The position numbers and the translations under genes were made by a program. Below the pieces are notes generated by a model. That model was not told where the DNA came from and made no database searches. It worked only from the letters and a program-made list of their open reading frames with translations. A stretch of 64,000 bases of DNA from NCBI GenBank assembly GCA_000002435.2, contig CM018793.1; one strand, 5' to 3'. Source of the stretch: Giardia intestinalis. Lineage: Eukaryota. Of the stretch, positions 1,772-37,720 are shown piece after piece. Position 1 is the first letter of the stretch, and every line of letters starts with the position of its first letter.

Positions 1772-2051
1772 ATAGTAACTATTTGCAGATCCACACGCTC
1801 ACCCGTCCATAGCGGTTCGTTTCCGGATTGCTCGTTTCCAGTTGTAAATTAATTTAAAGTGAATTCTTCTCAAGTTTTTACGCGGTGTCGAGAATGATGA
1901 GACGTGTTCCTCTCTCCTACAGACTCCCTGGGGATGCTATGTACACCTTACTGATTTACTTTCCTTTTCTCAAGGGCCATTGTGTCGTGCCATTGTGTTT
2001 TTGCGGGGCTTAGTGGTTCCCAGTGCAGTCGCCCGGATCCGGCAGGACCTA

Positions 2052-12600: not shown

Positions 12601-15600
12601 CAGCGACGATGAATCGGAGTCCAGTTCATCTTCGTCTCTTTCACTAAGTTCACACTTTGAAGATGGCAAGCTCCTAGAGAAGGATGTTGCTGGCGGAGTG
12701 ACCAATGAACCGGCTGCATCTCCAACCCAAATAGGTCTTACTGAAGATCGTAAACATAAAAAGAAGAAGCATAACGCTAAAGCACATATTAAATCTGATA
12801 AGGAACAAGGCATATTGATACAGCTCCAAGGAAAAGATGCTAAGAAGGGCTACTACACGTATCTACAGACAAAGAACGACAAGGCATTGCAGTATGAACC
12901 TCTCCTCGAGGGCAGCCGTGCATTTTCTGATGTTATTCTCACGGCGTCACATATTTATGATCCACATTTTGAGAATGCCCTTCTGGCGAAAAGTAAGCAG
13001 GCGCTGGAGCGCATTAAGACCAGGGCCCTGTCGGACCGCACAAAGCTACAGATGGCAGACCTTGATTATAACTACAAAATGCCGGCAAACAGCATCTTGC
13101 AAGGATCCCAACTTCTCAAACGTCAGCAATCAGAGCCGGATCTGTCCAGGGGCTCCGAGAAGCTGGGCGGCCCTATCGTTACGGCCTTGTTTGATGGAAC
13201 AATTCCTCATGTAGATGGAGTTACATCAGTTGCAAAGAAACTGATAGAAAATAAAGCTATTGATCACACTCCTAGAGGAGATGCTTCTGTGAGTGACCTA
13301 GATCTTTCGGGCCTTAGAACATATGACACAGGAAGCTTTGCGTCAAGCAAGTCGGTATTGGACAATGACGATCCACTAATTGACATGGCACAACGCGCAG
13401 TGAGACATTTCCGCTTGGTTGGTAAAAGCATGCAAGCGGACGACACTCCACCCTTCACTACTGAAGCAGCTACCAGTACACCCATGCGGGAAGAACTGCC
13501 CACAAATCCTAAGCCTTTACTCTCCTTGCATCAATCACCTCCAATAGAGCTGCAAGAGCATAAGACTGCGGCTGGGGAAGTGTGCCAATCCAGTCACGAT
13601 ATGTCTGCGTCGAAGCCTGAACCTACCCTAGCGTCTGCAAAACGTGAGAATTTAGTCTCACAGGCGAGCTCCTTGTTGAAGAAAACAGCCCCCATCCTGG
13701 TTCGTACATTTGAACCTGATCCGCTTTTATCGGACCGAGCCACTGATGAAGAAGGTAGCACTAATAAGTGTTGTTATGATATTGAGTCTATCTTTTCACT
13801 GGGAATGCCTAGCGACGAGAAGTCCTTTGAATTGCTAAGAACTGCTGTTTCGGCGCTAGCTGCTAAAAATATGGCATTGCATGATGAGATAGAAATGCTT
13901 AAGCAGAAGCTTGCAAGCGCTAAATCCACTAGCATCGCTCATCCGACTCCGTCAATATCTATGGCATGTCAATCAGATCCCAATCCAGCGGCAATGGCGT
14001 CACCAGCAAAGACAGATACTGAGGCATTTACTGTTGCCGCGGATTCATCTCACCCGAAGCGGCAAGAATTGCGATCTTTTTATCCCCCAAAGGCATTGAA
14101 TGTTCCTGCGCAGTGTTCTTCTAATGACCTCGTGGACCAGCAGCCTAATGCTTCTTTTGTGTCGCCTCCAACAAACTCCTTTGTAGAAATTAAGTCACAG
14201 GAGGGACTGATAGATACACGCTCTCCATGTCAATTTGAGACTGATCAAAGGACTATCAATTTGGAGTTTTCCAACGAGGAGAGAGTAGGTTCAGCGGTCG
14301 TAAAGCGAAAGCTAGGATATGAGGTGTTGACACACGTTGCCCAGGTAGCTCACGAGCCGCTTCTCAAGCCAAATAAGGACATAGTCCACCAATCAGAACT
14401 TTATGCCTATCCTCTTGTTGATCCAGCAGCTGAGAATACAGCGGATGGTGGCTTTGGAGCTTCACTTACCTATGATACTGCCTTAAATCTGGCGAAGTCT
14501 TCTATTAGCAAGTCGATAATAGTTAAGAACAAGGCCATAGATCATCCAACCCAGTCAGCAGAGCTCGACAATCTAATGCAGATAGACCCTAACAGTGAGC
14601 ATGTTCTTGCCCTGTCTGATGGCTCCGAAGATGAATTCCATCAGTTGGCAAGTACCAACACTGCTGATACTTTTAGACCCAGTGCTACAGAACAGCACAT
14701 AAATAGAATTCTGTTTCGCAATCACGCAAAGCCTCTGCTAGATGAGTACACGTCCATCAAGCATGCCAATGGACTCACTACTAATGCAAATTCACGCGAC
14801 GAAAATATTCCTAGTGCTCGATCCGCAGCACTACCTGTTTTGGTTACTGATCTAAAAGCTGCAGGTCTCAAAGGGAGGCCTCATCGCTCTGCAAGCGCAT
14901 CAACCAGTGTCCAGGGTACTGCTTTGCAACTGTTCCCCGCGGAAGATATTGACACGCAAAATCAGTATCTGGTAAGAACAGGATCATGCAAGGCAATCTT
15001 GATAACTACGCAAAATGAAGAGCCCCTGGGTAGCAAGGAATTAGAAAATTCTAATGGCAACATTGCTAGCAGTACTGATAATCAAAAACCTCCTTCAACG
15101 TCTGATAGGTTTTTACAGGGGCTGCAACCTCCCACCAATGGAAGAATCCAGCTAGATGGAGATGAAGATAAGACCACTGTTGTTGGCGCATCTCAGTACA
15201 ATCCATATATGCAGAAAAGAGTTGTGCCTTATGGAGACTTGCAGACGAGTAGAATCCACGTCCAGGATAACTGCGAAGTGGTCCCTGCTGATCTTTTATA
15301 CAAGGAGCCAACCGATGAAGAGGTAATAAGGCAGCACATACACCAGTCTGCACAGGCAGACCTAGATGCTTCGGCTGAAAGGCTTGGCAGTCTGGTGCGT
15401 AATCGGTGCAACGCTATCACAGAGCGCCCTATCAACTTAAAGTCACAACGCTCTTCTCCAAAACAATCGCCATCTAGATCTATCTCCCCAACCGTTACAG
15501 CTATGGGCAAGGGCGAGGTTTCTGCGGAGCCTCACCTCTATACTAGCGCACCTCTGAGTCCTATGCGGATGCTTCCACAGCAAAATGACGGGGCCGTTCA

Positions 15601-20458: not shown

Positions 20459-22588
20459 TTAACAGCAGCACTCCAACCTTTGTAGTACTTCGTTCGAGAG
20501 GAGGGAGACTATCTCGTGGCATCCCCATAGCTTGGCCATACAAAGAGCATCTCCTCCCGTACTGTCTCTCAGACTCTTCTCTCTCACGAGGAGCTTTACA
20601 CAGTCAATACTACCAATTTTCATAGCAAACATAAGAGCGGTCCATCCCGTTTTCTCCTTCATGCCAGCTTCCTTGTCTACGAGTAGCCTAACACAATCTA
20701 CGTGACGATTCTGCGCAGCCCACATGAGAGCGGTCATCCCGTCAGTCCTCTGCATACCACCCTCCAGCTCCACAAGTAATTTGACGCAGTCTGTGCGGCC
20801 GAGCTCTGCAGCGCACATGAGAGCGGTCCATCCATTGCCATCTTGCATGCGGCTTTCCTTTTTCATGAGTAGCTTAACACAGTCTGTATAACCACGACCT
20901 GCTGCAGCCATGAGAGCTGTAGTTCCGTTATTATCTTGCATACATATCTCCTTCCTTAGTAAACTCCTGGCGCAGTTCGAGTAGCCATTACCTACTGTGG
21001 CCATAAGAGCCGTTCCTCCATTGTTATCTCTCATACCTCCTTCCCTTTCCAGCAAAAGCTCGAGACAGTCTATGTGACCAGTTCTTGCAGCCCATATGAG
21101 GGCCGTCCACCCGCTATTATCTCTTATGCCCCCTTCCTTCTCCAGTAGCAGCCCCACAAGTTCTGTGTGACCGTGTATCGCTGCTCTCATCAGGGCGGTC
21201 CCTCCGCATATCTTCCATCTGTCCACATGTGTGCATCCCTTCATCTGCATGCCTCCCTGGAGCGGTATGAGGGTCTTCACTGCCTCCACGTCGTTTCTGT
21301 CAACGGCCCTCATGAGGTCGGTGGAGTCGTCCTCTTCGAGATGCTCCTCCTCTGTGTCCTCTATATTGTCTGTCTCGTCTGTCGTATCTATTGCATCTAC
21401 TGTGTCTGTCGTATCTGTCGTATCCGCTGTATCCGTTGCATTCCACGCGTCCCCCATGCCTATCTTCATCCATATCTCCTTTACCTTCTCAAGCGTCTTG
21501 GAGGTCTCACCAAACTGCTCCTTAGGGATATCTGCCCCTGCGGATTTAGCAGCAAGCTCCTTCTCAAGAGATAGGATCTTGTTGTTGGCATCATTCAGAG
21601 CAGCCTCCAAAGATGCGCATCTGTTCCTCAGTGCTTTATCTTTGGCTTCCTGTTCATCAGGAGGGCCGTTGAGCATCTGAAGCAGACGGACAAGCCCTCT
21701 GGCTGTCGGCCTCCTCTCTGGATCCAGCACGAATATCCGCTCCAGAACACTCTTTATGAAGCCGTCGGTGATGCCACTCAGATCGGGCCTCCACCCATCG
21801 ACGAAGACATCCTCTGGTTCTCTGCCCCCCAAGAAGTCCGGCTTCCTCAGGGTGGCGAGCTCGTATGCTATGGCCCCAATGCTCCAGATGTTGGACGCGG
21901 GAGTTATGATACCGCGGAGGAGCGTCTCGGGGGCCATGTATGCGGGGTCGCCGGTCTTCGTAGCCCAGCTCGACATGCCCATGCAGAGTTCGAAATTCGC
22001 AAGAACAATGTGCCTCCTATTTTCTGTGAATAAAATATTGTCAGGCTTGAAGATAACACCAGGAAACAGGCTGCCGTGGACACCATTGATGGGATCATGC
22101 AAGTAGATAAGGCAATTAGCAAGGTCTCTTACAAGGGAAAGTACCAACCTCTTAGGAATAGGCTTATGAGTTTCTCTGTAATTAGTGATCAACTGCTGAA
22201 GGTCTCCGCAGCGGCGGTCCATGATAATAAAAATCGTATTGCGACTCTTAATTATCTTGCCGCAGCTGAGAACATCCGGATAAGAGGTGTTTGGAAGAGC
22301 GACTAGCTTGAGTTTGGCAGCATCTACACTATACTGGTCTGGATCATCAGGCCGGATCTCCTTCGCGGCAAGGTGAGGGTATCCTTTAAGAGAGTAGATA
22401 GTACTGTAGGCATCCTTGCTGAGCACGTCACCCAGGCACCTGCGCAGCTTCTCGGGACTGAACATGGGGACGTCATCTGTATCCACCAGCCCCGCAAAAC
22501 CACTAGCTGACCCCTCAGTAGGACTCCTTAGAGTGCTATGTGCGGCGGATGAGGTAAGGGGGTAAGACCGGCAGTCAACAGCCATCAT
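20459..22588 (-). CDS. NEK-family kinase-like protein with C-terminal ankyrin repeats, probably a catalytically inactive pseudokinase
   Basis: Kinase fold motifs are present (AAKEI, KPDNILF, GDPAYMAPE, SNIWSIGAIAYEL). However, the HRD catalytic loop reads GVIFKPDN and DFG reads NFE. About 9 ankyrin repeats follow (GxTALMxAAxxGHxxCVKLLL). The start is re-anchored to ATGATG at 22588 with an AT-rich leader; the ORF-track start at 22684 is GTG. Confidence 0.75.
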   Translation of the reverse strand: MMAVDCRSYPLTSSAAHSTLRSPTEGSASGFAGLVDTDDVPMFSPEKLRRCLGDVLSKDAYSTIYSLKGYPHLAAKEIRPDDPDQYSVDAAKLKLVALPNTSYPDVLSCGKIIKSRNTIFIIMDRRCGDLQQLITNYRETHKPIPKRLVLSLVRDLANCLIYLHDPINGVHGSLFPGVIFKPDNILFTENRRHIVLANFELCMGMSSWATKTGDPAYMAPETLLRGIITPASNIWSIGAIAYELATLRKPDFLGGREPEDVFVDGWRPDLSGITDGFIKSVLERIFVLDPERRPTARGLVRLLQMLNGPPDEQEAKDKALRNRCASLEAALNDANNKILSLEKELAAKSAGADIPKEQFGETSKTLEKVKEIWMKIGMGDAWNATDTADTTDTTDTVDAIDTTDETDNIEDTEEEHLEEDDSTDLMRAVDRNDVEAVKTLIPLQGGMQMKGCTHVDRWKICGGTALMRAAIHGHTELVGLLLEKEGGIRDNSGWTALIWAARTGHIDCLELLLEREGGMRDNNGGTALMATVGNGYSNCARSLLRKEICMQDNNGTTALMAAAGRGYTDCVKLLMKKESRMQDGNGWTALMCAAELGRTDCVKLLVELEGGMQRTDGMTALMWAAQNRHVDCVRLLVDKEAGMKEKTGWTALMFAMKIGSIDCVKLLVREKSLRDSTGGDALCMAKLWGCHEIVSLLSNEVLQRLECCC

Positions 22589-23182
22589 TACTTTTAATTT
22601 TACAGTACAGTTTACTCTCCGTTTCACTGGGTAAATCTCCCATGCGAGCCAGCGCCGCCCTGGGCAGGTCTCTTGCTTACTCACTAACCGAAATCCAAAT
22701 CCAGACTTCGCAAGTCAAACGTCGTCCACTTCAGCGGGAGAAGAAGCCCAAATGGGGAAGTCGGTGGTCCAACGCCTAGCCCTCTGCGTCCCCAGTAGAC
22801 AACAAACCCGCGGCTGCTCCCACGAGTGAGCCGCTGAGGAAGGCCTGCGGGGACTCGAAGAAAAGAGTCTAGAGAGCATCCAATAGAATGAGCAGGAGGG
22901 CCAGGAGACAGGAACAAGAGAGCTCTAGCATCTTCCTCTAGCGAACCTCCCTGTCATGGAGAAGGGTGTATGGTGGCTGAGTGTGGGGGTTGTAAACCTA
23001 GAGCAATCGCCGGGTCGATGGCTTCAGCATGGCTTTCAGCAAGATGTAGCAGGGAATCCGAACCAGCTGAGCATTGGACCAGGTCCTGGATAGGAGCTAA
23101 GGGCTCCTGTGCACGGCTGGGCTGCTCTCTAGATGGGACAGGGCACGGTGAGCTGGACGGGTGTGATACTATAAGGTATCTA

Positions 23183-23202
23183 TAGTTGTATCGATACAAC
23201 TA
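23183..23202. repeat. 20-bp perfect palindrome tagttgtatcgatacaacta, with a mirror copy at 36670-36689
   Basis: Exact self-reverse-complement centred on ATCGAT. It sits in the ORF-free part of each arm. Confidence 0.85.
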
Positions 23203-26200
23203 GTAGGCCCACACTGGACTCTGAGAAGTACACTGCTAGACAGGCTGGAGAAGCCTGAGGGGCGATAGCACCATCTTGTTATCGCTATGCAGTGCTCTGT
23301 GGGCATGCATTCAAGACATCATCCCCTGGTAGCCGGGGAGGGGACAGAGTCAGGCGGTAGTGAGCATGCCCATCAGAATGCCTCTAGGTACTGACCAGCC
23401 ACTCCCTAGAAGCGCAGATGTCTCGGCTAGGTTGCATCACATCCAGAGCAAAAGAGGAAGCTGTACTGTCCTATTTGTTTCTCAGAACAATGTGCGAATA
23501 GAAGGCGGCCCAGCGACTGATACTCTGCACCGTCCTCTTCATCCACAGCCTGAGCAGCCAGATGCCAGGCTCAATATGAAGACGGAGGCTGCGAAGAGTA
23601 AACTCACCACGGGGCCGATTGTCTGACACCAAAAAATCCGAAAGGACGACAGTAGCTGCTGTCTCCTTGAAGAGTGCATCACACACAGTATCGACCTTGG
23701 TCTCCTAGACGAACACTCTAGAACATTCTACACTAGCCCTGACTTCTGAGGCATTAAACCCTATAACTAGCACAGAGTGAGGCAACAGCATGCAGACGGT
23801 GCGTTATCTTCATAGATGTGTACTACAGCTTCCGACTGCATATGGATGTACCGAGATGGGCAGTTTGACCGGCTTACATTGGCGACTTGTCCGTCACCGT
23901 GTTTGCTGCGATGAGAAGCTGCGTCTGCCCGGCAGACTGAGCATAGATTACAGCAGCTTCTCTGCTGATGCATGTATGGCCATGCGCCGCCCTAGTAGGT
24001 GGCGTAAATACCATAATGCCTAACCTGTCTGTTGTTAGCGGAAAATAGCAGTTAGTCGTGTTAGAGATGCCTCTAAGTAAGCCTCTAGTCTTTGTGCCTA
24101 CTCCTCTACCAATTATAGTGACGACCGTATATTCAGAAAGACTACGGAACTCTCCACCGTCTCTCAAGGAGACTAACGGCTCATGCATGGGCTAGCGACG
24201 GAGGCCCATGAACTACCTACTACGAGCCTAGCTTACTGAGCAGTCTGGATCACAGTGCACTTGATAAGCATCTATGCACTCATTTGGATGCTCACTACTA
24301 ATACTGACAAGACTACAAGGAGGTTTGCTTTTGGTCACACTCCCCTCATAATGCTTAGCCCTTGGCACCACATTTCAACGAAGGAAGATGTTAGGTAGGT
24401 ACGCAAAAGGCTATTTGTGCACGGTGGTTCCTGGAGAGCAAGTTTGCACAAAGACTGTAAAGGCGACTAGCAGATCAGTGAGGTAAGCCTGACGTTATAG
24501 AGACAAGCTGTAGATCCGGATTGCAATGGGGACGCCTGTGGTGTCTCTCTGGCCTTCGAGTGTAGAAAAATCGCGAGGTCTGCAGACAGGTGAAGCTAGT
24601 TTTTGATTTATGCGCTTATAGCAGTGTAATATTTATTGGGACCTGTTTCGTCTGAGGCCGAAGACGTTTATCTTTTCTCCGTATACAAGCAAGGATCTAC
24701 TGTAGAGATATACTGTGCAGGCCAGTACCAATCGACGTGGTTGCTATTAGCAGGTGTCTCACTTGCACCTTCTCATAACGGGTAGCCATCAGCAGCGTCC
24801 TCGGCCCACGTGACATTCTAGATGCATCTCTGCCTTTGACCAAAGATTGACACACGCGTTGTGTAGTTTAGATTGCTCATCAGCCAGAGTGGCGTGGCTA
24901 CCCCTTATCCTCTACTTGTCTATCTCGTACAACCATTGCTGATGGCCTTTCCAGATTAGCATGCAAATGCTCTTATCGGTCCCACAAAGGCATACGTCAT
25001 ACAAATAATCACTACAGTCTAGGGTCCTGTCTACCAAAGAAAAGGCCAACCAGTTTACCACGTAGGCATTCATTGTGCATCTCATATAGTCTGGCAAGTC
25101 TTGTGCTCCCCAACATTCCCTCGCAAGCCCTCAGCTAAAGCCCGTATGCATATCGTTATTGACAAGCGCCTTAGCTTCATCTGGCCACTTAGGGCGTTAG
25201 ACCCTTTGCCTTGTACAATGAGTATACTCGGCGTGGGAGGTATACAATCAGCATCGGCCTTTTCTGCTCGTTGTCCGTATGATACTGTTGTTGCTTCTTG
25301 ATTCAACCAGCAACCTAGTTAATGGCTCAAGAGTAGGTGATAGCCCGCCAACGGGCAGTCAATAGTGGCCATAACGCATACCTTCACCAAGGCACAGCCT
25401 CCCTGAGCAGAGCACAAAAGTGGACCCTGCCATTCTGCGGCCCTACTATTCTCTTGAATAACAGGATCAGAGCAGCTCATGGTTAGTATTAGCTGTCTTC
25501 GGGTCTCCACCTGTCCTTATTGTCTGAGGTATGCTTGACTCCGTAGATTCGAAAGATGCTGTACTGTACTCGTACCTGCAAGCCTCAGCCAAGCAAGGCT
25601 ACCATCTTGAAGGCTTGGCAGTGATGAGCCACACAGTCGGCGGGATCTGCAGAGAGCATTCATCCCAATGAGCCTTTTACTTGTCGTATACAGGTTGTGG
25701 CTGTGACCTCATAGGCGCAGGACTTTCTGGAATAACCGGTCAACTACAGAGTCTGTCCACTCATGTAAAGCCACCTGATAGAGGGCGATATCAATCTCGT
25801 CACTCGTCTACAACATACACCAGTCGAATCTCACAGATGAACAAGGGCCACCCAGCCCGCAGCACTAGACATTAACAGATATCCTTCACGACAAAGGGGG
25901 TGAGCGACTAGTAGACCACAGCAGTCGCCTGCCCATTGAAGATCTTCCAGTCACTGACCTAGGTCAGCTTCCTACAAGATCTTGAGAGCTTTATTAGAGG
26001 TGCATGCTTATAGAATCCCCAACTCAAGGTGCATGCTGTCGGACCCTGCTATTTTTCACATCAGCTCGTAGACATCGGTTCTTTTGATCTCTAGTGGGGT
26101 CACGGGGGATCGCAAGATATGGTTCCCTCAGTAAGGCTTTATCTGACTCCTGTAGCTATATGACAGGAGGATACCGGTCTTCTATGGATTATTTAACGCA

Positions 26201-27357
26201 TGCTAAGGTGCACCAGTACAAGTCCTACAGTGTGGCATGATTCGTGAGTCAAAAGGTAGGATGCTTGGGCTGATTGGCGTGTCTCCTCGGGACCAAATAC
26301 AGCTAGGACCAAAGGTCATGAACGAATGCTATTCGATTCCCTTATCAGCAGATGGGGGTCAACTGCTCTAGTATCCACAAGAGGCTATAGAGGGTACTGG
26401 ACCAGGCATCCGGCCAATTGCTGGCAAATCAACACAACCTCCTTGGATCTCCATTCTTTCCTCACAGGCATCTACATGTAGGAAGCTCTGAGGACCTAGA
26501 GCCCTACACTAACAGGCTCAAGGTATTGCACTCCTAGGTGCTTCCATTAGTGGTGGTAGTGATAGCACCAGGATGATCCAGAAGGGGGATAGAAATCCTG
26601 CCCCGTTAGCTCAAGAAATGGCACAGTTTGAGCAGGGTTTCCTCCTTGTTTAAATTTGGGAGTACTAGCCTACGCCCTCTGACCATCTGACGCCTTATCA
26701 TGCGATGGGGAATCTTAATAGTATCCACTACAAAAAGCCAGAAATAGCACCATGCACACCCAACAAACCAGAGCGTCTCATAGGCTAATCTACACTGATT
26801 CGCACTTCCACGGACCCTAGCGACCACTGTAACCGTCTCTCGGGATCTTGCAAGGGACTGTCCTTGAGCGCGATTCCTCCATGACAACCAGAAGTCGCAG
26901 ACATAGTCCAAAGGGATGAGAATACTATAGAGGCGGAGAAGAGATCATCTGCGCACGGGGGTCCGCAGGGGCCCGACCCGCACAGGGAAGGCGTAAGAGG
27001 CCAATTCCCCAGGAATGCAGAGACATTAAGAGAGGAACCAGCAGTGGGCCCATAACACAGGGAGGTCACCCGGGCCGCCCCCTGATTGGCCACAGGGTAG
27101 AGGAGCAGCATGCGCGCGGGACAGCATTGCTACTTATTTTTGAATTTTCTGTTTCCCTGCATGTTGTGCAGGGGTCCGCGGTGGGTGCTAGACTATAGTT
27201 AGTAGATGCTTTCGGCATTAACAACTATCTCTTGTACAACAATATTATCAAAAAGGGATTTCTTTAAGCTGGCAGCATAGCAATAACCGAATGGAGCTTT
27301 TTAGCTTTGGGTATCTTTGCTAGTAGGATTCTTGATAGTGGATTAAGAAGAATCTCA

Positions 27358-28617
27358 ATGTTGCTGATAGCTTTCTATCTTGGGCTGAGCGCCCTTGCGG
27401 CACAATGTAAGCAAGTACAAAATTGTGCAGCAGGTAAGTGTGAGATGGTTGGCGGCACTGAAATTTGTACAGAATGCGCGACAAATGGAAACGTTCCTAT
27501 CAATGGGGAGTGTACACCAAAAGGTAATGCGGCTGATAAATGCAAGAAAGTTAACGGTAATGAGCTTGTTGACGATAAGACATGTGGAAAATGTGAGAAC
27601 ACATACTTCATGTACAAGGGTGGATGCTATCAACTTGGCAGTGATGTCGCACTCCTCATCTGCAACGATCAAGCTGCTTCACCTGGAGGGCGTAATGCTG
27701 TTGCTGGCGTTTGCACAGAATGTAATGCTACTGGGGGATTCTTCAAAAGCCCAGAGGCGGCCGACACGACAGATTCCTGCATATCGTGCAGTGATACAAC
27801 TGGAGTGCAGGTTAATGGCGGTAACACGTATAAAGGTATCGAGAATTGTGTAGTATGTGCAGCTCCAGAAAGAGGAACAGGTAACGAAAATAAGATTGCT
27901 GCATGTGAGTCATGTCTTGAAGGATTCTTCGTTGCATCTAACAAGGCAGTATGCACACGTTGTACTGATAATGATAATTGCGCTAAGTGTGATGCAGGCG
28001 AAAACAAGTGCACAAAATGTAAGGCAACAGCCAGCAAACCATATCTAAAAAAGGGCGAAACCGAGGACTCTAATACATGTGTTAATAGTAACGAATGTAC
28101 TACTGATAAAACTTACTTCACTGATGATACTGACGACCCTACTCATGGAAAGATGTGCAAGAAATGCTCAGAAGGGATAGCAGACTGTAAGAAATGCGCT
28201 CCATCATCACCTTCTGCTTTAGCTACAGTATCCGCAATTGTGTGCACAGAATGTACAACACAGACCAACAAACCCAATGTTGCCGGAACAGGGTGCTTCA
28301 CATGCTCCGTAGACGGATGTAGTAACTGTAGCGAGAATGACGTATGTGAAAAGTGTGGACCTAACAAGAAGGTGAGCCCCGGGAGGAAGTCATGCGTGGA
28401 TAGCTGTCCCGAGAACTCCATTGACGATAACTCTGTCTGTACATGCAGCAGTGGGTACAGCCCTGACAGCAGTGGGGCCTCCTGTGTGTCCACTGGCAGT
28501 AATAGGAGCGGGCTCTCCACGGGGGCCATAGCGGGGATCTCCGTCGCAGTCATCGTCGTCGTCGGGGGTCTCATAGGGTTCCTCTGCTGGTGGTTCGTGT
28601 GTAGGGGGAAGGCGTGA
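27358..28617 (+). CDS. vsp: Variant-specific surface protein (VSP)
   Basis: Signal peptide MLLIAFYLGLSALAA, many CXXC motifs, a GGCY motif (YKGGCYQ), and a C-terminal TM ending in the invariant CRGKA. The stop is followed by the VSP extended poly(A) signal. The ORF-track start at 27307 is TTG; the first ATG is 27358. Confidence 0.92.
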   Translation: MLLIAFYLGLSALAAQCKQVQNCAAGKCEMVGGTEICTECATNGNVPINGECTPKGNAADKCKKVNGNELVDDKTCGKCENTYFMYKGGCYQLGSDVALLICNDQAASPGGRNAVAGVCTECNATGGFFKSPEAADTTDSCISCSDTTGVQVNGGNTYKGIENCVVCAAPERGTGNENKIAACESCLEGFFVASNKAVCTRCTDNDNCAKCDAGENKCTKCKATASKPYLKKGETEDSNTCVNSNECTTDKTYFTDDTDDPTHGKMCKKCSEGIADCKKCAPSSPSALATVSAIVCTECTTQTNKPNVAGTGCFTCSVDGCSNCSENDVCEKCGPNKKVSPGRKSCVDSCPENSIDDNSVCTCSSGYSPDSSGASCVSTGSNRSGLSTGAIAGISVAVIVVVGGLIGFLCWWFVCRGKA

Positions 28618-28631
28618 CTTAGGTAGTAAAC
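28617..28631 (+). promoter_or_regulatory. VSP-type extended polyadenylation signal ACTTAGGTAGTAAAC, overlapping the TGA stop
   Basis: Exact match to the ACTYAGRTAGTRAAY consensus described for Giardia vsp genes. It contains the general Giardia AGTRAAY poly(A) signal. Confidence 0.8.
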
Positions 28632-29107
28632 ACGTCACTGTATATGGCTTATTACGCTATTCTGCCGGGGCTATCTGAGGATCGCCCAGAGGTCGTGCGA
28701 GTGATCCTCGCTCAAGCTCTGACCAGTCTAAGGACGAGGGTTGGTCATGAATAACATGACGGAGAGCCCTCTCCAGTGACACATCCAGAATCTGGGCATT
28801 CCTCGCCGCTCCATGAGGATATGCTCTGTCTGGATGTCCATGCCGATCTATCTTGGATTCAGGCCTTCTCGCAGGCTCTCTACTCTACCCGTGGCGCCTC
28901 TCCATGGTCTTCCTTCGTGGTGGGTGAAGCTCCGGTCGCTGTTTTTTAGATGCTCCTGTCTGTCAGGGGCTGCCACCGGGCTCTCCGCTGGCTGGGCCCT
29001 CGGTGTCCGTCCGGCTGTGGCCCGGGCAGCGCTCTACGGTCGCGGTCACTTGGGTCTCAGTGGGTTCGGATGGTGGGGAGGCGAGGGGAGTTAGGGCGGT
29101 GAGGCCG

Positions 29108-29134
29108 GAGGGGCTGGAGGGGCTGGAGGGGCTG
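29108..29134. repeat. (GGAGGGGCT)x3 G-run triplet repeat at the inner edge of the left arm; its mirror lies at 30738-30764
   Basis: Read directly: ggaggggctggaggggctggaggggct followed by gagg. Confidence 0.8.
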
Positions 29135-29150
29135 AGGTTGGTGGTGGTTG

Positions 29151-30719
29151 TATGCGCCTCTGGTCCCTCGATAGACTGGGGTGATCGCAGCTGTGGTGAC
29201 TGGGGGCTGTCCATCTGTGACTCACCCCTCTGTGTGCTCGTGGTCTGTGAGTGCCTCCACCCAGACAACCCTCAGGAGCCGTGCACACCAGGACAGAGAG
29301 GGTGACAGAGGAGAGTCAAGCAGCCCTGCCACGAGGGTGCACAGCAGCCAGCCTGGGCTGCAGGGCCCGCTCGAGCGATGGTAGTGACAGACGACTCCCT
29401 CTGACAGCAGCCCTGGTGACTGGCACTGGTCTGCTTTCGAGGCTGAGTGACAGTGTGCACAGATGGACATGAGTGCAGGAGGACCATCCACACACGGACA
29501 GACTGTGCCCCCATACGAGAGCGCCAGGCAACCACCCGAGCACCCGAGAGGCAGCAACAGACACGGGCACTAGAGATCCCCAGCCAGACAGCTGCCATGC
29601 TCATCCATAGGGGCATCAGAGGACCAGGGGAGTCACCCTCACAATCAGGGTATGATAGGAAGCCAGAGGACTCAAACACTACAGCATAGCAGATCCAAGG
29701 GAGGCACACTCCAGCAGGCGAGCAGTGGCAGAGCCCTGATAGCTGCCAGCCCCCCATGACACCCAGGCAGGCACCAGGCTCACCGAAGGCTCTGCTGGCC
29801 TCCACCGATGATCCGAGGGGGCAGCAACCAGAGGAGTGGGGAGGCCTTCGGACACCACAAGAGGCCCGGCTGTCCAGCAGGCGATGGAGCACAGGTGGCC
29901 TCTGAGCACCATACAGGCACAGAGCCGACCATCAGAGTGATGCCCGATCAGAGACGACCACGAGCACCCTCCACCGCACTCTGAGGGGCTGTCGATCATC
30001 CCACTGCCTCTCATAGCAGACCTCCTTGAGAGCAGTGCAGTGGGTCCCAGCTCATGCACGCCTCCCCTGGCATAGGACACCCCGGCTCTCCCCGAGGGGT
30101 CATCAGAGCCACGAGAGGTGTCAAGGTCCTGGTAGATCACACCGGGAACTCCCCGAGGGCACAGCAACTGAGATATGAGTGACCCTCAGTGTGCTCCTCT
30201 CTGATGGTAGAGCATCTTGAGACCAAGGGGGTCACCTCTGCCTACGGACGACACACAGCACTCCACAACAAGGACCCACTAGGAGCAGCACAGCTGACCA
30301 CGGGGACAGTGCAGTCACCAGTGCCCCACCGTGCCAGTTTTCTGGGCCATCATACTATAGGCATGAGAGAACCCCATCCCATCCACAGGGTCATCCATGC
30401 CCCTGCTGGCCCGAGGTGAACTCCCCGTCGAGGCGCTGGACAGGGCATGCCAGGGGCTCAGCAGACCCACAGAGAGAATCAGCGAGTAGCAGGAGGGGCT
30501 GCGATGGCCTGCCTCAGCCCTCACGTACCAGCCAGACAGAGAGACAGTACTGCCTGAGGCATGCAGGGGCCAAGGGAGGCGATCAGTCAGGGGACACGAC
30601 ACGATCGTCGGTGCCTGTGTCTCGGGAGTGCAACGAAGGCTGGAGATCAGACACAGCCACCTTAGCAAACAGAGTGGGGACAACCCACCACCCCAATAGC
30701 CCACCGAACCCAGAGGCAC
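29151..30719. other. Unique central spacer between the inverted-repeat arms. It is GC-rich and markedly T-poor on the top strand.
   Basis: It has no mirror partner. By eye thymine is clearly under-represented on the top strand. The several overlapping long ORFs on the minus strand are compositional artefacts, because an A-poor strand contains few stop codons. Confidence 0.7.
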
Positions 30720-31240
30720 ATACAACACCACCAACCTCAGCCCCTCCAGCCCCTCCAGCCCCTCCGGCCTCACCGCCCTAACTCCCCTCGCCTCCCCACC
30801 ATCCGAACCCACTGAGACCCAAGTGACCGCGACCGTAGAGCGCTGCCCGGGCCACAGCCGGACGGACACCGAGGGCCCAGCCAGCGGAGAGCCCGGTGGC
30901 AGCCCCTGACAGACAGGAGCATCTAAAAAACAGCGACCGGAGCTTCACCCACCACGAAGGAAGACCATGGAGAGGCGCCACGGGTAGAGTAGAGAGCCTG
31001 CGAGAAGGCCTGAATCCAAGATAGATCGGCATGGACATCCAGACAGAGCATATCCTCATGGAGCGGCGAGGAATGCCCAGATTCTGGATGTGTCACTGGA
31101 GAGGGCTCTCCGTCATGTTATTCATGACCAACCCTCGTCCTTAGACTGGTCAGAGCTTGAGCGAGGATCACTCGCACGACCTCTGGGCGATCCTCAGATA
31201 GCCCCGGCAGAATAGCGTAATAAGCCATATACAGTGACGT

Positions 31241-31255
31241 GTTTACTACCTAAGT
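31241..31255 (-). promoter_or_regulatory. Mirror copy of the VSP extended polyadenylation signal
   Basis: Reverse complement of 28617-28631, lying inside the right arm. Confidence 0.8.
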
Positions 31256-32514
31256 CACGCCTTCCCCCTACACACGAACCACCAGCAGAGGAACCCTATG
31301 AGACCCCCGACGACGACGATGACTGCGACGGAGATCCCCGCTATGGCCCCCGTGGAGAGCCCGCTCCTATTACTGCCAGTGGACACACAGGAGGCCCCAC
31401 TGCTGTCAGGGCTGTACCCACTGCTGCATGTACAGACAGAGTTATCGTCAATGGAGTTCTCGGGACAGCTATCCACGCATGACTTCCTCCCGGGGCTCAC
31501 CTTCTTGTTAGGTCCACACTTTTCACATACGTCATTCTCGCTACAGTTACTACATCCGTCTACGGAGCATGTGAAGCACCCTGTTCCGGCAACATTGGGT
31601 TTGTTGGTCTGTGTTGTACATTCTGTGCACACAATTGCGGATACTGTAGCTAAAGCAGAAGGTGATGATGGAGCGCATTTCTTACAGTCTGCTATCCCTT
31701 CTGAGCATTTCTTGCACATCTTTCCATGAGTAGGGTCGTCAGTATCATCAGTGAAGTAAGTTTTATCAGTAGTACATTCGTTACTATTAACACATGTATT
31801 AGAGTCCTCGGTTTCGCCCTTTTTTAGATATGGTTTGCTGGCTGTTGCCTTACATTTTGTGCACTTGTTTTCGCCTGCATCACACTTAGCGCAATTATCA
31901 TTATCAGTACAACGTGTGCATACTGCCTTGTTAGATGCAACGAAGAATCCTTCAAGACATGACTCACATGCAGCAATCTTATTTTCGTTACCTGTTCCTC
32001 TTTCTGGAGCTGCACATACTACACAATTCTCGATACCTTTATACGTGTTACCGCCATTAACCTGCACTCCAGTTGTATCACTGCACGATATGCAGGAATC
32101 TGTCGTGTCGGCCGCCTCTGGGCTTTTGAAGAATCCCCCAGTAGCATTACATTCTGTGCAAACGCCAGCAACAGCATTACGCCCTCCAGGTGAAGCAGCT
32201 TGATCGTTGCAGATGAGGAGTGCGACATCACTGCCAAGTTGATAGCATCCACCCTTGTACATGAAGTATGTGTTCTCACATTTTCCACATGTCTTATCGT
32301 CAACAAGCTCATTACCGTTAACTTTCTTGCATTTATCAGCCGCATTACCTTTTGGTGTACACTCCCCATTGATAGGAACGTTTCCATTTGTCGCGCATTC
32401 TGTACAAATTTCAGTGCCGCCAACCATCTCACACTTACCTGCTGCACAATTTTGTACTTGCTTACATTGTGCCGCAAGGGCGCTCAGCCCAAGATAGAAA
32501 GCTATCAGCAACAT
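31255..32514 (-). CDS. vsp: Variant-specific surface protein (VSP), an identical inverted copy
   Basis: The protein is identical to the 27358-28617 product. It is convergent with it, so the pair is tail-to-tail. Confidence 0.92.
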   Translation of the reverse strand: MLLIAFYLGLSALAAQCKQVQNCAAGKCEMVGGTEICTECATNGNVPINGECTPKGNAADKCKKVNGNELVDDKTCGKCENTYFMYKGGCYQLGSDVALLICNDQAASPGGRNAVAGVCTECNATGGFFKSPEAADTTDSCISCSDTTGVQVNGGNTYKGIENCVVCAAPERGTGNENKIAACESCLEGFFVASNKAVCTRCTDNDNCAKCDAGENKCTKCKATASKPYLKKGETEDSNTCVNSNECTTDKTYFTDDTDDPTHGKMCKKCSEGIADCKKCAPSSPSALATVSAIVCTECTTQTNKPNVAGTGCFTCSVDGCSNCSENDVCEKCGPNKKVSPGRKSCVDSCPENSIDDNSVCTCSSGYSPDSSGASCVSTGSNRSGLSTGAIAGISVAVIVVVGGLIGFLCWWFVCRGKA

Positions 32515-35500
32515 TGAGATTCTTCTTAATCCACTATCAAGAATCCTACTAGCAAAGATACCCAAAGCTAAAAAGCTCCATTCGGTTATTGCTATGCTGC
32601 CAGCTTAAAGAAATCCCTTTTTGATAATATTGTTGTACAAGAGATAGTTGTTAATGCCGAAAGCATCTACTAACTATAGTCTAGCACCCACCGCGGACCC
32701 CTGCACAACATGCAGGGAAACAGAAAATTCAAAAATAAGTAGCAATGCTGTCCCGCGCGCATGCTGCTCCTCTACCCTGTGGCCAATCAGGGGGCGGCCC
32801 GGGTGACCTCCCTGTGTTATGGGCCCACTGCTGGTTCCTCTCTTAATGTCTCTGCATTCCTGGGGAATTGGCCTCTTACGCCTTCCCTGTGCGGGTCGGG
32901 CCCCTGCGGACCCCCGTGCGCAGATGATCTCTTCTCCGCCTCTATAGTATTCTCATCCCTTTGGACTATGTCTGCGACTTCTGGTTGTCATGGAGGAATC
33001 GCGCTCAAGGACAGTCCCTTGCAAGATCCCGAGAGACGGTTACAGTGGTCGCTAGGGTCCGTGGAAGTGCGAATCAGTGTAGATTAGCCTATGAGACGCT
33101 CTGGTTTGTTGGGTGTGCATGGTGCTATTTCTGGCTTTTTGTAGTGGATACTATTAAGATTCCCCATCGCATGATAAGGCGTCAGATGGTCAGAGGGCGT
33201 AGGCTAGTACTCCCAAATTTAAACAAGGAGGAAACCCTGCTCAAACTGTGCCATTTCTTGAGCTAACGGGGCAGGATTTCTATCCCCCTTCTGGATCATC
33301 CTGGTGCTATCACTACCACCACTAATGGAAGCACCTAGGAGTGCAATACCTTGAGCCTGTTAGTGTAGGGCTCTAGGTCCTCAGAGCTTCCTACATGTAG
33401 ATGCCTGTGAGGAAAGAATGGAGATCCAAGGAGGTTGTGTTGATTTGCCAGCAATTGGCCGGATGCCTGGTCCAGTACCCTCTATAGCCTCTTGTGGATA
33501 CTAGAGCAGTTGACCCCCATCTGCTGATAAGGGAATCGAATAGCATTCGTTCATGACCTTTGGTCCTAGCTGTATTTGGTCCCGAGGAGACACGCCAATC
33601 AGCCCAAGCATCCTACCTTTTGACTCACGAATCATGCCACACTGTAGGACTTGTACTGGTGCACCTTAGCATGCGTTAAATAATCCATAGAAGACCGGTA
33701 TCCTCCTGTCATATAGCTACAGGAGTCAGATAAAGCCTTACTGAGGGAACCATATCTTGCGATCCCCCGTGACCCCACTAGAGATCAAAAGAACCGATGT
33801 CTACGAGCTGATGTGAAAAATAGCAGGGTCCGACAGCATGCACCTTGAGTTGGGGATTCTATAAGCATGCACCTCTAATAAAGCTCTCAAGATCTTGTAG
33901 GAAGCTGACCTAGGTCAGTGACTGGAAGATCTTCAATGGGCAGGCGACTGCTGTGGTCTACTAGTCGCTCACCCCCTTTGTCGTGAAGGATATCTGTTAA
34001 TGTCTAGTGCTGCGGGCTGGGTGGCCCTTGTTCATCTGTGAGATTCGACTGGTGTATGTTGTAGACGAGTGACGAGATTGATATCGCCCTCTATCAGGTG
34101 GCTTTACATGAGTGGACAGACTCTGTAGTTGACCGGTTATTCCAGAAAGTCCTGCGCCTATGAGGTCACAGCCACAACCTGTATACGACAAGTAAAAGGC
34201 TCATTGGGATGAATGCTCTCTGCAGATCCCGCCGACTGTGTGGCTCATCACTGCCAAGCCTTCAAGATGGTAGCCTTGCTTGGCTGAGGCTTGCAGGTAC
34301 GAGTACAGTACAGCATCTTTCGAATCTACGGAGTCAAGCATACCTCAGACAATAAGGACAGGTGGAGACCCGAAGACAGCTAATACTAACCATGAGCTGC
34401 TCTGATCCTGTTATTCAAGAGAATAGTAGGGCCGCAGAATGGCAGGGTCCACTTTTGTGCTCTGCTCAGGGAGGCTGTGCCTTGGTGAAGGTATGCGTTA
34501 TGGCCACTATTGACTGCCCGTTGGCGGGCTATCACCTACTCTTGAGCCATTAACTAGGTTGCTGGTTGAATCAAGAAGCAACAACAGTATCATACGGACA
34601 ACGAGCAGAAAAGGCCGATGCTGATTGTATACCTCCCACGCCGAGTATACTCATTGTACAAGGCAAAGGGTCTAACGCCCTAAGTGGCCAGATGAAGCTA
34701 AGGCGCTTGTCAATAACGATATGCATACGGGCTTTAGCTGAGGGCTTGCGAGGGAATGTTGGGGAGCACAAGACTTGCCAGACTATATGAGATGCACAAT
34801 GAATGCCTACGTGGTAAACTGGTTGGCCTTTTCTTTGGTAGACAGGACCCTAGACTGTAGTGATTATTTGTATGACGTATGCCTTTGTGGGACCGATAAG
34901 AGCATTTGCATGCTAATCTGGAAAGGCCATCAGCAATGGTTGTACGAGATAGACAAGTAGAGGATAAGGGGTAGCCACGCCACTCTGGCTGATGAGCAAT
35001 CTAAACTACACAACGCGTGTGTCAATCTTTGGTCAAAGGCAGAGATGCATCTAGAATGTCACGTGGGCCGAGGACGCTGCTGATGGCTACCCGTTATGAG
35101 AAGGTGCAAGTGAGACACCTGCTAATAGCAACCACGTCGATTGGTACTGGCCTGCACAGTATATCTCTACAGTAGATCCTTGCTTGTATACGGAGAAAAG
35201 ATAAACGTCTTCGGCCTCAGACGAAACAGGTCCCAATAAATATTACACTGCTATAAGCGCATAAATCAAAAACTAGCTTCACCTGTCTGCAGACCTCGCG
35301 ATTTTTCTACACTCGAAGGCCAGAGAGACACCACAGGCGTCCCCATTGCAATCCGGATCTACAGCTTGTCTCTATAACGTCAGGCTTACCTCACTGATCT
35401 GCTAGTCGCCTTTACAGTCTTTGTGCAAACTTGCTCTCCAGGAACCACCGTGCACAAATAGCCTTTTGCGTACCTACCTAACATCTTCCTTCGTTGAAAT

Positions 35501-37282
35501 GTGGTGCCAAGGGCTAAGCATTATGAGGGGAGTGTGACCAAAAGCAAACCTCCTTGTAGTCTTGTCAGTATTAGTAGTGAGCATCCAAATGAGTGCATAG
35601 ATGCTTATCAAGTGCACTGTGATCCAGACTGCTCAGTAAGCTAGGCTCGTAGTAGGTAGTTCATGGGCCTCCGTCGCTAGCCCATGCATGAGCCGTTAGT
35701 CTCCTTGAGAGACGGTGGAGAGTTCCGTAGTCTTTCTGAATATACGGTCGTCACTATAATTGGTAGAGGAGTAGGCACAAAGACTAGAGGCTTACTTAGA
35801 GGCATCTCTAACACGACTAACTGCTATTTTCCGCTAACAACAGACAGGTTAGGCATTATGGTATTTACGCCACCTACTAGGGCGGCGCATGGCCATACAT
35901 GCATCAGCAGAGAAGCTGCTGTAATCTATGCTCAGTCTGCCGGGCAGACGCAGCTTCTCATCGCAGCAAACACGGTGACGGACAAGTCGCCAATGTAAGC
36001 CGGTCAAACTGCCCATCTCGGTACATCCATATGCAGTCGGAAGCTGTAGTACACATCTATGAAGATAACGCACCGTCTGCATGCTGTTGCCTCACTCTGT
36101 GCTAGTTATAGGGTTTAATGCCTCAGAAGTCAGGGCTAGTGTAGAATGTTCTAGAGTGTTCGTCTAGGAGACCAAGGTCGATACTGTGTGTGATGCACTC
36201 TTCAAGGAGACAGCAGCTACTGTCGTCCTTTCGGATTTTTTGGTGTCAGACAATCGGCCCCGTGGTGAGTTTACTCTTCGCAGCCTCCGTCTTCATATTG
36301 AGCCTGGCATCTGGCTGCTCAGGCTGTGGATGAAGAGGACGGTGCAGAGTATCAGTCGCTGGGCCGCCTTCTATTCGCACATTGTTCTGAGAAACAAATA
36401 GGACAGTACAGCTTCCTCTTTTGCTCTGGATGTGATGCAACCTAGCCGAGACATCTGCGCTTCTAGGGAGTGGCTGGTCAGTACCTAGAGGCATTCTGAT
36501 GGGCATGCTCACTACCGCCTGACTCTGTCCCCTCCCCGGCTACCAGGGGATGATGTCTTGAATGCATGCCCACAGAGCACTGCATAGCGATAACAAGATG
36601 GTGCTATCGCCCCTCAGGCTTCTCCAGCCTGTCTAGCAGTGTACTTCTCAGAGTCCAGTGTGGGCCTACTAGTTGTATCGATACAACTATAGATACCTTA
36701 TAGTATCACACCCGTCCAGCTCACCGTGCCCTGTCCCATCTAGAGAGCAGCCCAGCCGTGCACAGGAGCCCTTAGCTCCTATCCAGGACCTGGTCCAATG
36801 CTCAGCTGGTTCGGATTCCCTGCTACATCTTGCTGAAAGCCATGCTGAAGCCATCGACCCGGCGATTGCTCTAGGTTTACAACCCCCACACTCAGCCACC
36901 ATACACCCTTCTCCATGACAGGGAGGTTCGCTAGAGGAAGATGCTAGAGCTCTCTTGTTCCTGTCTCCTGGCCCTCCTGCTCATTCTATTGGATGCTCTC
37001 TAGACTCTTTTCTTCGAGTCCCCGCAGGCCTTCCTCAGCGGCTCACTCGTGGGAGCAGCCGCGGGTTTGTTGTCTACTGGGGACGCAGAGGGCTAGGCGT
37101 TGGACCACCGACTTCCCCATTTGGGCTTCTTCTCCCGCTGAAGTGGACGACGTTTGACTTGCGAAGTCTGGATTTGGATTTCGGTTAGTGAGTAAGCAAG
37201 AGACCTGCCCAGGGCGGCGCTGGCTCGCATGGGAGATTTTCTTGGACAGCAGCTGGCAAACCGGTTTTAGTGACGAAAGTAA

Positions 37283-37720
37283 ACCATCATTCGTGATGCT
37301 GAACAATGCGTGAAGAACGGGGCTGCCTGCAACTGGACGCCCAAGGCGAGGGGCGGAACGTGTGTGCAGAACGCCACGGGCGCATGGACGTGTCAGTGCA
37401 ACCCGGGCTACGTTGGAAGGCATTACGACCTCTGCGACAAGGGCATGACGGCTGTCGATGGGACCTGTACGCCTCACAATCTGGTGAAACTATACGCTAG
37501 CAAGAAGTGCCTGAACACCCGTCTGGCCGCCAGCGTGTGCACAGGGCACGGGGAGTGCTACAAGGACGCCTGTGTCTGCGCCGAGGGCTACCACGGGGAT
37601 CTGTGTGACTGCCGTGTGAGGAACATCGGGGCCGTGGCGGGGGTGACGGCGAGCACGGCCGTCTTCTTCGGGCTCCTCTTCCTGTCTGTGGCCAGGTGTC
37701 ATAGGACGCCCGCCCGGTAG
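37283..37720 (+). pseudogene. EGF-like cysteine-rich membrane protein fragment (an HCMP-like 3-prime part). It has no ATG start or signal peptide and begins 44 bp after the right boundary of the inverted repeat.
   Basis: The open frame runs from the stop at 37280. The first in-frame ATG is internal, and the ORF-track start is GTG. EGF-like Cys spacing (CxCxxGYxGxxC) plus a C-terminal TM (AVAGVTASTAVFFGLLFLSVA). Confidence 0.4.

Follow-up and report, generated by a model that had tools for sequence, protein, structure and literature searches.

A gene-free stretch beside an inverted vsp pair of Giardia intestinalis WB: a vsp-linked non-coding module with the stump of a dead retrotransposon

Introduction

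The vsp genes of Giardia intestinalis have an extended upstream non-coding region (PMC2996952), and the surroundings of VSP genes tend to be gene-poor, with reverse transcriptase (RT) remnants in 4 of 7 divergent vsp pairs (PMC7000408). Gene-poor regions by vsp genes also harbour GilD, a dead family of non-LTR (non-long-terminal-repeat) retrotransposons whose copies are riddled with deletions (PMC2861651), and identical vsp genes in inverted pairs have been catalogued (PMC2996952; PMC7000408). Here we describe a 4.7-kb stretch free of sizeable open reading frames (ORFs) at 22633-27357 of a 64,000-nt piece of chromosome 5 of G. intestinalis WB (assemblage AI); the whole of this piece was analysed and is referred to as the window. 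The stretch lies upstream of one vsp gene of an inverted pair, has an exact mirror image upstream of the other, and carries the stump of a GilD-like element at its outer end. In the WB genome, of which 81.5% is coding, intergenic distances average 477 bp, with a median as low as 81 bp (PMC7000408; PMC7641422), so that the gap is about ten times the mean. A first-pass annotation of the window, made from the sequence, had regarded the gap as surprising for Giardia; its length justifies this, whereas the published gene poverty of vsp surroundings makes it less of a surprise.

The locus is one of the catalogued tail-to-tail pairs. Two arms of 6,514 nt each, 100% complementary in a repeat search and in direct comparison, enclose a unique spacer (Table 1), in agreement with the perfect arm conservation that had been noted before; the stretch was duplicated together with the vsp gene, as had been suggested, and both lie inside the same arm. 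The two vsp ORFs are arranged tail to tail, 2,637 nt apart, and the identity stops 529 nt past the stop codon. The values of 529 nt and 2,637 nt match the 'vsp107' row in Table 5 of Adam et al. 2010 (PMC2996952), and Table 2 of Xu et al. 2020 lists a pair on chromosome 5, d14331/14331, -> <-, with 419 aa and 2637 bp (PMC7000408); in the catalogued pair the ORFs are 2,637-2,638 nt apart. From the match of these values, the locus is the pair vsp107 = d14331/14331. The 419-aa product is identical in sequence to KAE8305600.1, KAE8305601.1 and XP_001705960.1, and an AGTAAA polyadenylation signal is located at 28625-28630. GL50803_14331 was reported as one of only two vsp genes still up-regulated in trophozoites after excystation (PMC8700996), hence the vsp of the pair is expressed. 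For tail-to-tail pairs no 5' extent of the identity was given in PMC2996952, since contigs broke there; here it reaches 4,725 nt upstream of the ATG, and the 158-729 nt of identity of the head-to-head pairs in that study fall far short of this.

The locus was compared with contigs of other origin. Two come from DH (assemblage AII): one end of L001 is some 470 bp upstream of the NEK gene, and L004 extends from a cathepsin gene across one arm with its vsp, then across the spacer and into the second arm. L002 and L003 are AII-like metagenome contigs, and L007 is a Logan contig (SRR21529620) from another isolate. Three retroelement-bearing loci represent assemblage E (P15; L005 and L015) and GS (L006). 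Seven contigs from other sequencing runs (L008-L014) span the NEK side of the left arm; five of them were compared and agree with 21839-25845 at 99.9-100% identity, which confirms the sequence as well as the NEK flank and the boundary of the arm. All seven appear to end at window position 25845, as seen directly for the five compared, and there is no obvious repeat at this position.

Results and Discussion

The stretch is non-coding

The stretch at 22633-27357 is non-coding DNA. Its longest ORFs starting with ATG, both on the minus strand, comprise 108 aa (26785-27111) and 104 aa (23874-24188). From stop to stop, the longest frame has 114 codons, compared with 137 +/- 25 in mononucleotide shuffles, and the open frame is thus no greater than in random sequence. 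With 0.47-0.53 the GC content is like that of the remaining window. Tandem-repeat and self-similarity searches of the stretch gave only trivial repeats, besides one perfect 20-nt palindrome, TAGTTGTATCGATACAACTA, at 23183-23202, of which about 0.005 are expected per 4.7 kb. Its centre is changed from CG to TA in DH with the symmetry kept, while P15 retains only the core ATCGAT. The first-pass annotation had described about 4.7 kb without a sizeable ORF in each arm, of normal base composition and without low complexity, and this description is accurate.

Hallmarks of a protein-coding gene or a recent pseudogene, namely an open frame, a domain, a codon bias or a periodicity of substitutions, were not found. 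Six-frame translations of the stretch, with stops as X, gave no Pfam match at E<=1, and neither tblastn with 95 Giardia NEK, VSP and RT proteins nor tblastx against the rest of the window gave a match in it. When codon-usage log-odds were trained on the genes of the window, the stretch gave at most 0.049 per codon over 100 codons, which is under the shuffle mean of 0.061; real genes average 0.11-0.20, and the decayed RT of DH still reaches 0.154. The mismatches between WB and DH and between WB and P15 have no 3-base periodicity (p 0.19-0.98 per 600-nt block; 0.41-0.91 for WB-P15), with the vsp coding sequence as control giving 167/81/82 (p = 2.4e-10). In the P15 counterpart of the stretch no ORFs are called either. 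The small number of indels in the WB-P15 alignment was considered as a sign of coding constraint and rejected, as there is no periodicity and about 170 gap columns were placed by blastn.

The 104-aa ORF formerly carried the annotation 'hypothetical protein GL50803_117618', as might be expected if a protein gene (vsp, HCMP, NEK or ankyrin) had decayed recently or been mis-annotated, or if the introns of a gene had gone unrecognised. It has no coding signal, and the first WB annotation was over-annotated with small ORFs (PMC7000408). Together with the negative domain and protein searches, the low codon log-odds, the lack of periodicity and the ORF-free P15 counterpart, this makes a protein gene extremely unlikely. 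The idea of a degenerated gene was not borne out: outside the element stump described below, the remaining 4.1-4.4 kb yielded neither a vsp, HCMP or NEK gene nor any other protein gene in a decayed form.

Non-coding RNA (ncRNA) genes, which the first-pass annotation had also envisaged, were not detected in the form of a known structured RNA family or a transfer RNA (tRNA). The Rfam 15 covariance models gave no match in 22400-31000 at the gathering threshold or at E<=1, ARAGORN found no tRNA in the stretch, and a gathering-threshold scan of the whole window gave the small nucleolar RNA (snoRNA) GlsR10 as the sole match, far from the stretch. Giardia ncRNAs are poorly catalogued, and with GlsR10 one is present elsewhere in the window, so an unannotated snoRNA-like or other ncRNA gene might be conceived. 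Against this stand the empty searches and the fact that no island in the stretch is conserved across WB, DH, L007 and P15, and we regard such a gene as highly improbable.

The outer arm ends carry the stump of a dead retrotransposon

Sequence similarity places the 5' stump of a non-LTR retrotransposon at the outer end of the stretch, and identifies the 3.1-kb piece that follows it in AII contigs and is missing from WB as a further part of the same element. The stump consists of the left terminal inverted repeat (~22610-22790) and about 190 nt of the 5' region. Positions 22610-22631 are the reverse complement of the 3' end of a P15 element (L005:3351-3372), including AGTAAAC (95%), and 22636-22668 matches the reverse complement of L005:3290-3322; in the right-arm mirror, 37204-37259 matches L005:3290-3344 (E 2e-7). 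The P15 locus L015 aligns as well, with 94% identity between 22638-22668 and L015:3373-3403 and 61% between 22798-22981 and L015:3564-3752. In a six-way alignment of terminal repeats, the outer WB arm ends align to the 183-nt repeats of L015. As they cover the repeat on the left and a further ~200 nt of the element beyond it, WB retains only the first 350-400 nt of the element.

In alignments with the WB arm, the contigs L002, L003 and L004 are 88-93% identical to it and have 3,094 extra nt between window positions 22937 and 22969. This extra segment contains a C2H2 zinc-finger-like stretch, a frameshifted RT remnant and a 3' untranslated region (UTR). The RVT_1 domain of Pfam is matched with E 2.7e-6 and 27.7 bits, slightly below the cut-off of 29.6. 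When stitched across two frameshifts, the RT matches P0093, 'Reverse transcriptase/endonuclease, putative [Giardia lamblia P15]', with E 1.5e-66 and 48% identity; in tblastn the RT matches are spread over three frames. A near-complete P15 copy (L015:3347-7702) has 183-nt terminal inverted repeats that are 95% identical, and its match to the intact RT/CCHC/endonuclease protein P0095 extends over all 494 residues. Colinear with this P15 element, the DH copy is without L015:6578-7645 and has its own 82-nt terminal inverted repeat. An RT domain is thus present in the orthologous DH and ENA segment, whereas none was found in the WB window by tblastn or phmmer with P0093 and P0095, by tblastx against the P15 and GS elements, or by six-frame Pfam searches. 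The suspected retrotransposon remnant of the first-pass annotation therefore exists in WB as the outer ~350 bp; the RT part is deleted there and survives in DH and the metagenome contigs.

GilD, which is said to have been described by Arkhipova and Morrison in 2001, is probably the same family as Genie 2, reportedly described by Burke et al. in 2002. A terminus present as an inverted copy is reportedly a trait of Genie 2, and Genie 2 copies reportedly carry inverted repeats of up to ~172 bp, with which the 183-nt repeats of the P15 element agree. In WB, a 3' AGTAAAC end with an inverted copy at the 5' end is found at 22610-22790 and in the mirror. The likeness to GilD/Genie 2 is drawn here from the published description: here too the copies are dead, with frameshifts, internal deletions and a deletion involving microhomology, and the site is in a gene-poor region by a vsp gene, as described for the family (PMC2861651). 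The elements compared here have the domain order zinc finger, RT and then CCHC/REL-endonuclease. A difference to GilD is that WB retains only the short stump, and the other 4.1-4.4 kb of the stretch are unrelated to the element. At the GS locus (L006:9907-16419, AHHH01000176), three RT-bearing element fragments of at least two families are arranged in tandem, and the preceding ~4 kb are without called genes.

WB lost most of the element by deletion

In DH the 3.1-kb segment is flanked by an imperfect 13-nt direct repeat, with TATGATAGCAGAG at L004 ~2636 and TATGGTGGCTGAG at L004 5714; WB has a single copy, TATGGTGGCTGAG, at the corresponding junction. Such a repeat could be taken for a target-site duplication and WB for the empty site. 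This was rejected, since the left copy is located ~350 nt inside the element. The empty site is also countered by the other DH arm end (L001:1-460), which is only 67-70% identical to the first and likewise runs into the extra segment, and by about 13 nt of flank just before the repeat (GAGGACCGTGCTC) that are present in both P15 and DH and missing from WB. Taken together, these three observations indicate that the element is ancestral to both arms and that WB carries a deletion with microhomology.

The non-coding module is linked to the vsp lineage

Between the stump and the vsp promoter lies a module of ~4.1 kb (Table 1) that shows no similarity to the window, to the fetched proteins or to the complete P15 element in tblastx, blastn and phmmer --max searches, which included P0095 and the GS element ORFs. 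It is 92% identical to DH. In P15, a copy in reverse orientation (L015:11309-15476) matches window 27103-22983 with 66.7% identity, downstream of a related vsp (L015:10001-11164; 62% amino acid identity), and a second copy is located upstream of this gene (L015:8005-10000); the P15 copies are 64-67% identical to WB. Around the single vsp they form an inverted repeat of 2,052 nt with 97.8% identity (L015:7704-9755 / 11180-13231), and the left P15 arm carries only ~2.05-2.3 kb of the module. The simplest reading of this layout is a former tail-to-tail pair minus the spacer and one vsp, and alternatively it may reflect an assembly collapse. Formally, a vsp between 2,052-nt inverted copies is like an invertible cassette.

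The element joins the module at window 22969 in assemblage A and at the equivalent of ~25200 in assemblage E. These different join points imply that the module is not part of the element. It is accordingly very unlikely that the entire 4.7 kb is retrotransposon debris, such as a very long 3' UTR or GilD copies decayed past recognition, even though a GilD-like element abuts the module in both A and P15 and GilD copies are known for many deletions (PMC2861651). The near-complete P15 element is enclosed by its own terminal inverted repeats with the module outside, similarity searches connect the module with neither the complete element nor P0095, and the module has no residual codon bias, unlike the pseudo-RT of DH.

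How the module changes can be judged from comparisons with other lineages. The divergence between WB and DH is ~8%, relative to 1.3-4.5% at four-fold sites in flanking genes and 8.7% in the vsp. The identity between WB and P15 is flat, with 55-80% per 100 nt. The contig L007 (1-6164) starts exactly at the deletion junction at 22969 and has 11 mismatches up to 25377, so the distal 2.4 kb are 99.5% identical to WB; from ~25378 on it is ~60% identical and then continues into an unrelated longer vsp with at most 35% amino acid identity to any fetched vsp. The swap of the proximal ~2 kb in L007 shows that the proximal half of the module is exchangeable. By its divergence from DH and P15, the module appears to drift at a roughly neutral rate.

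Constraint appears confined to the vsp promoter

The sequence directly upstream of the vsp gene differs from the module in its conservation. In alignments of WB, DH, L007 and P15, conserved blocks are found at ~27132-27160, at 27173-27186 (GGTCCGCGGTGGG) and at ~27300-27331 (TTTTAGCTTTGGGTATCTTTGCTAGTAGGATT). An initiator, CAATGTT, spans the vsp ATG at 27355-27361 and corresponds to the consensus PyAatgTT of vsp genes (PMC2996952). Constraint is thus apparent only in about the last 250 bp before the ATG, the vsp promoter. The regulatory sequence that the first-pass annotation had considered has a possible counterpart in the regulatory-looking motifs of this part, which are confined to it.

We conclude that the stretch is probably a non-functional or at most passively structural gene-poor vsp flank and not a hidden gene; the lack of a function of the module is what we infer. 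Several observations weigh against this conclusion. Across the A/E divergence in a compact genome, the module length is nearly constant, with 4,120 nt in WB and 4,168 nt in P15, and the module is present as inverted copies around a vsp in both assemblages. Its identity of 66.7% between WB and P15 is not below that of third-codon positions of the vsp (~56%). In addition, a GC-rich block, GCGCACGGGGGTCCGCAGGGGCCCGACCCGC, at 26952-26982 has 30 nt identical between WB and P15, where 0.02 such blocks are expected, and it resembles GGTCCGCGGTGGG 200 nt downstream, which is kept in all four lineages. A weak constraint on the module may therefore exist.

The same observations are those that could be put forward for the main rival explanation, in which the module acts in cis on the vsp, either as a chromatin or insulator domain or by serving as template for transcripts, sterile or antisense, that contribute to vsp silencing. 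Such a role would also explain why the module is constantly copied together with the vsp. In substance, the case for it consists of this single short block and the long-term retention of the module. Outside the last ~250 bp the block is the sole conserved island, and it differs by 5 changes in DH and by 7 in L007. Furthermore, the divergence from DH is at or above the synonymous divergence of the flanking genes, the proximal half is replaced in L007, and the distal half is missing from the left arm of P15. We therefore consider a regulatory or chromatin role unlikely, and favour the reading of the stretch as a gene-poor flank.

The arms are old and were homogenised in WB

The first-pass annotation had proposed that the perfectly conserved arms are either young or maintained by conversion. 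The two DH arms are 95.5% identical beside the vsp 3' end and only 67-70% at the outer end, and each of the WB arms is similar to the DH arm on the side of the cathepsin gene (93-97%) and not to that on the NEK side (~70%). The inverted structure is common to WB and DH and is found in a modified form in P15. Since the arms differ in DH, their perfect match in WB reflects a recent homogenisation of an old palindrome and not a young duplication. Of the two proposals, conversion is thus the better option, to which the 97.8% identity of the P15 copies also points, and the young age has to be given up. The homogenisation probably occurred by gene conversion or by re-copying of one arm.

A possible order of events can be proposed from these comparisons. 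About 4.1 kb of non-coding DNA would have been tied to this vsp lineage since before the split of assemblages A and E. A GilD/Genie-2-type element with ~180-nt terminal inverted repeats would have been present at the distal end of the module and died there, and the unit of element, module, vsp and ~0.5 kb would have come to form a tail-to-tail inverted duplication. In the lineage of WB (AI), a deletion involving the 13-nt imperfect microhomology may then have removed ~13 nt of flank together with 3.1 kb of the element, of which the 350-400-nt stump remained, before gene conversion from arm to arm, or re-copying, made the WB arms identical.

Human Y-chromosome palindromes are a known case of large arms that are kept uniform by arm-to-arm gene conversion. 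The locus resembles them in having long, near-identical inverted arms around a unique spacer, with 100% identity between the WB arms relative to 92% between WB and DH. It differs in that the arms are much smaller and that the DH arms are not uniform; here conversion is proposed from the comparison of lineages. In a more far-reaching reading, the module would be a conserved vsp-linked unit, serving as homology arms that drive conversion or inversion of the cassette, or as a chromatin or non-coding-transcript domain in switching, with the GilD-like element perhaps aiding the creation of inverted vsp pairs; we hold this to be distinctly improbable.

The spacer between the arms is 85% identical to the DH and ENA contigs. 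It has no Pfam or Rfam match, its stop-free frames do not exceed 161 aa, and six-frame Pfam searches of the entire inter-vsp DNA (28618-31254) were also negative. Relative to the cathepsin flank, the spacer has the opposite orientation in the DH contig and in WB (29147-30725; L004:11857-13476; L002:9515-11134). This could result from flip-flop recombination between the arms or from an assembler switching arms inside the identical repeats. A 9-nt tandem repeat, GGCTGGAGG, with 3.6 copies is located at 29103-29134 / 30738-30769, exactly at the inner arm end where the identity stops.

Features of the locus and its neighbourhood

The coordinates of the features are compiled in Table 1. On the left, the arm is followed by a 709-aa gene (20459-22588, minus strand) that is 100% identical to a WB NEK kinase. 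Over its first ~38 codons and the 5' flank (22475-22633; L001:470-607), WB and DH are only ~65-70% identical, compared with 97% in the remainder of the gene region. This drop looks like a recombination breakpoint inside the coding sequence, outside the perfect arm. Between the right arm and the cathepsin gene, 37310-37720 (plus strand) holds a stop-free frame of 136 codons with two EGF-like cysteine patterns and a transmembrane tail. The frame is without an ATG in WB, and its DH counterpart (L004:1704-2285) is a 193-aa ORF with 19 extra nt, so that it may be a pseudogene in WB. The GlsR10 C/D-box snoRNA (Rfam RF02478, 105 bits) is located at 1891-1958 (plus strand) and supports the Giardia origin of the window.

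Table 1. Features of the inverted vsp locus in the WB window.
Feature	Position	Strand	Remarks
Left arm	22633..29146	+	Holds element stump, non-coding module, vsp and 529 nt of 3' flank
Right arm	30726..37239	-	Exact reverse complement of left arm; ORF-free stretch at 32515-37239
Unique spacer between arms	29147..30725	.	1,579 nt, ~63% GC
vsp GL50803_(d)14331	27358..28617	+	419 aa, C-terminal CRGKA; ATG at 27358
Twin vsp	31255-32514	-	ORF 100% identical to left-arm vsp
5' stump of dead GilD/Genie-2-like non-LTR retrotransposon (by similarity)	22610..22968	+	Mirror at ~36904-37262
Deletion junction	22961..22973	+	TATGGTGGCTGAG, single WB copy of imperfect 13-nt direct repeat
Non-coding module, no detectable ancestry	22969..27110	+	~4.1 kb; mirror at 32762-36903
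vsp promoter-proximal region	27111..27357	+	Motifs conserved in WB, DH, L007 and P15

Implications for vsp loci

The gap is an ordinary instance of a documented property of Giardia vsp loci, and this kind of feature is already known: as in other gene-poor vsp neighbourhoods, long ORF-free DNA is found upstream of an expressed vsp with an initiator. Unlike them, this instance could be followed to a locus in assemblage E, with 64-67% identity, and we found no report of such a trace. This tracing, the 4.7-kb upstream extent of the arms and the WB-specific loss of 3.1 kb may be new.

Giardia vsp loci are gene-poor, recombining and littered with dead GilD copies. At this locus, the arms stay identical for 4.7 kb upstream of the vsp, and their outer ends fall within a terminal repeat that belongs to a dead retrotransposon. 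These additions, of specialist interest for the genome dynamics of vsp genes, show that such palindromes are old and repeatedly homogenised, and not young duplications.

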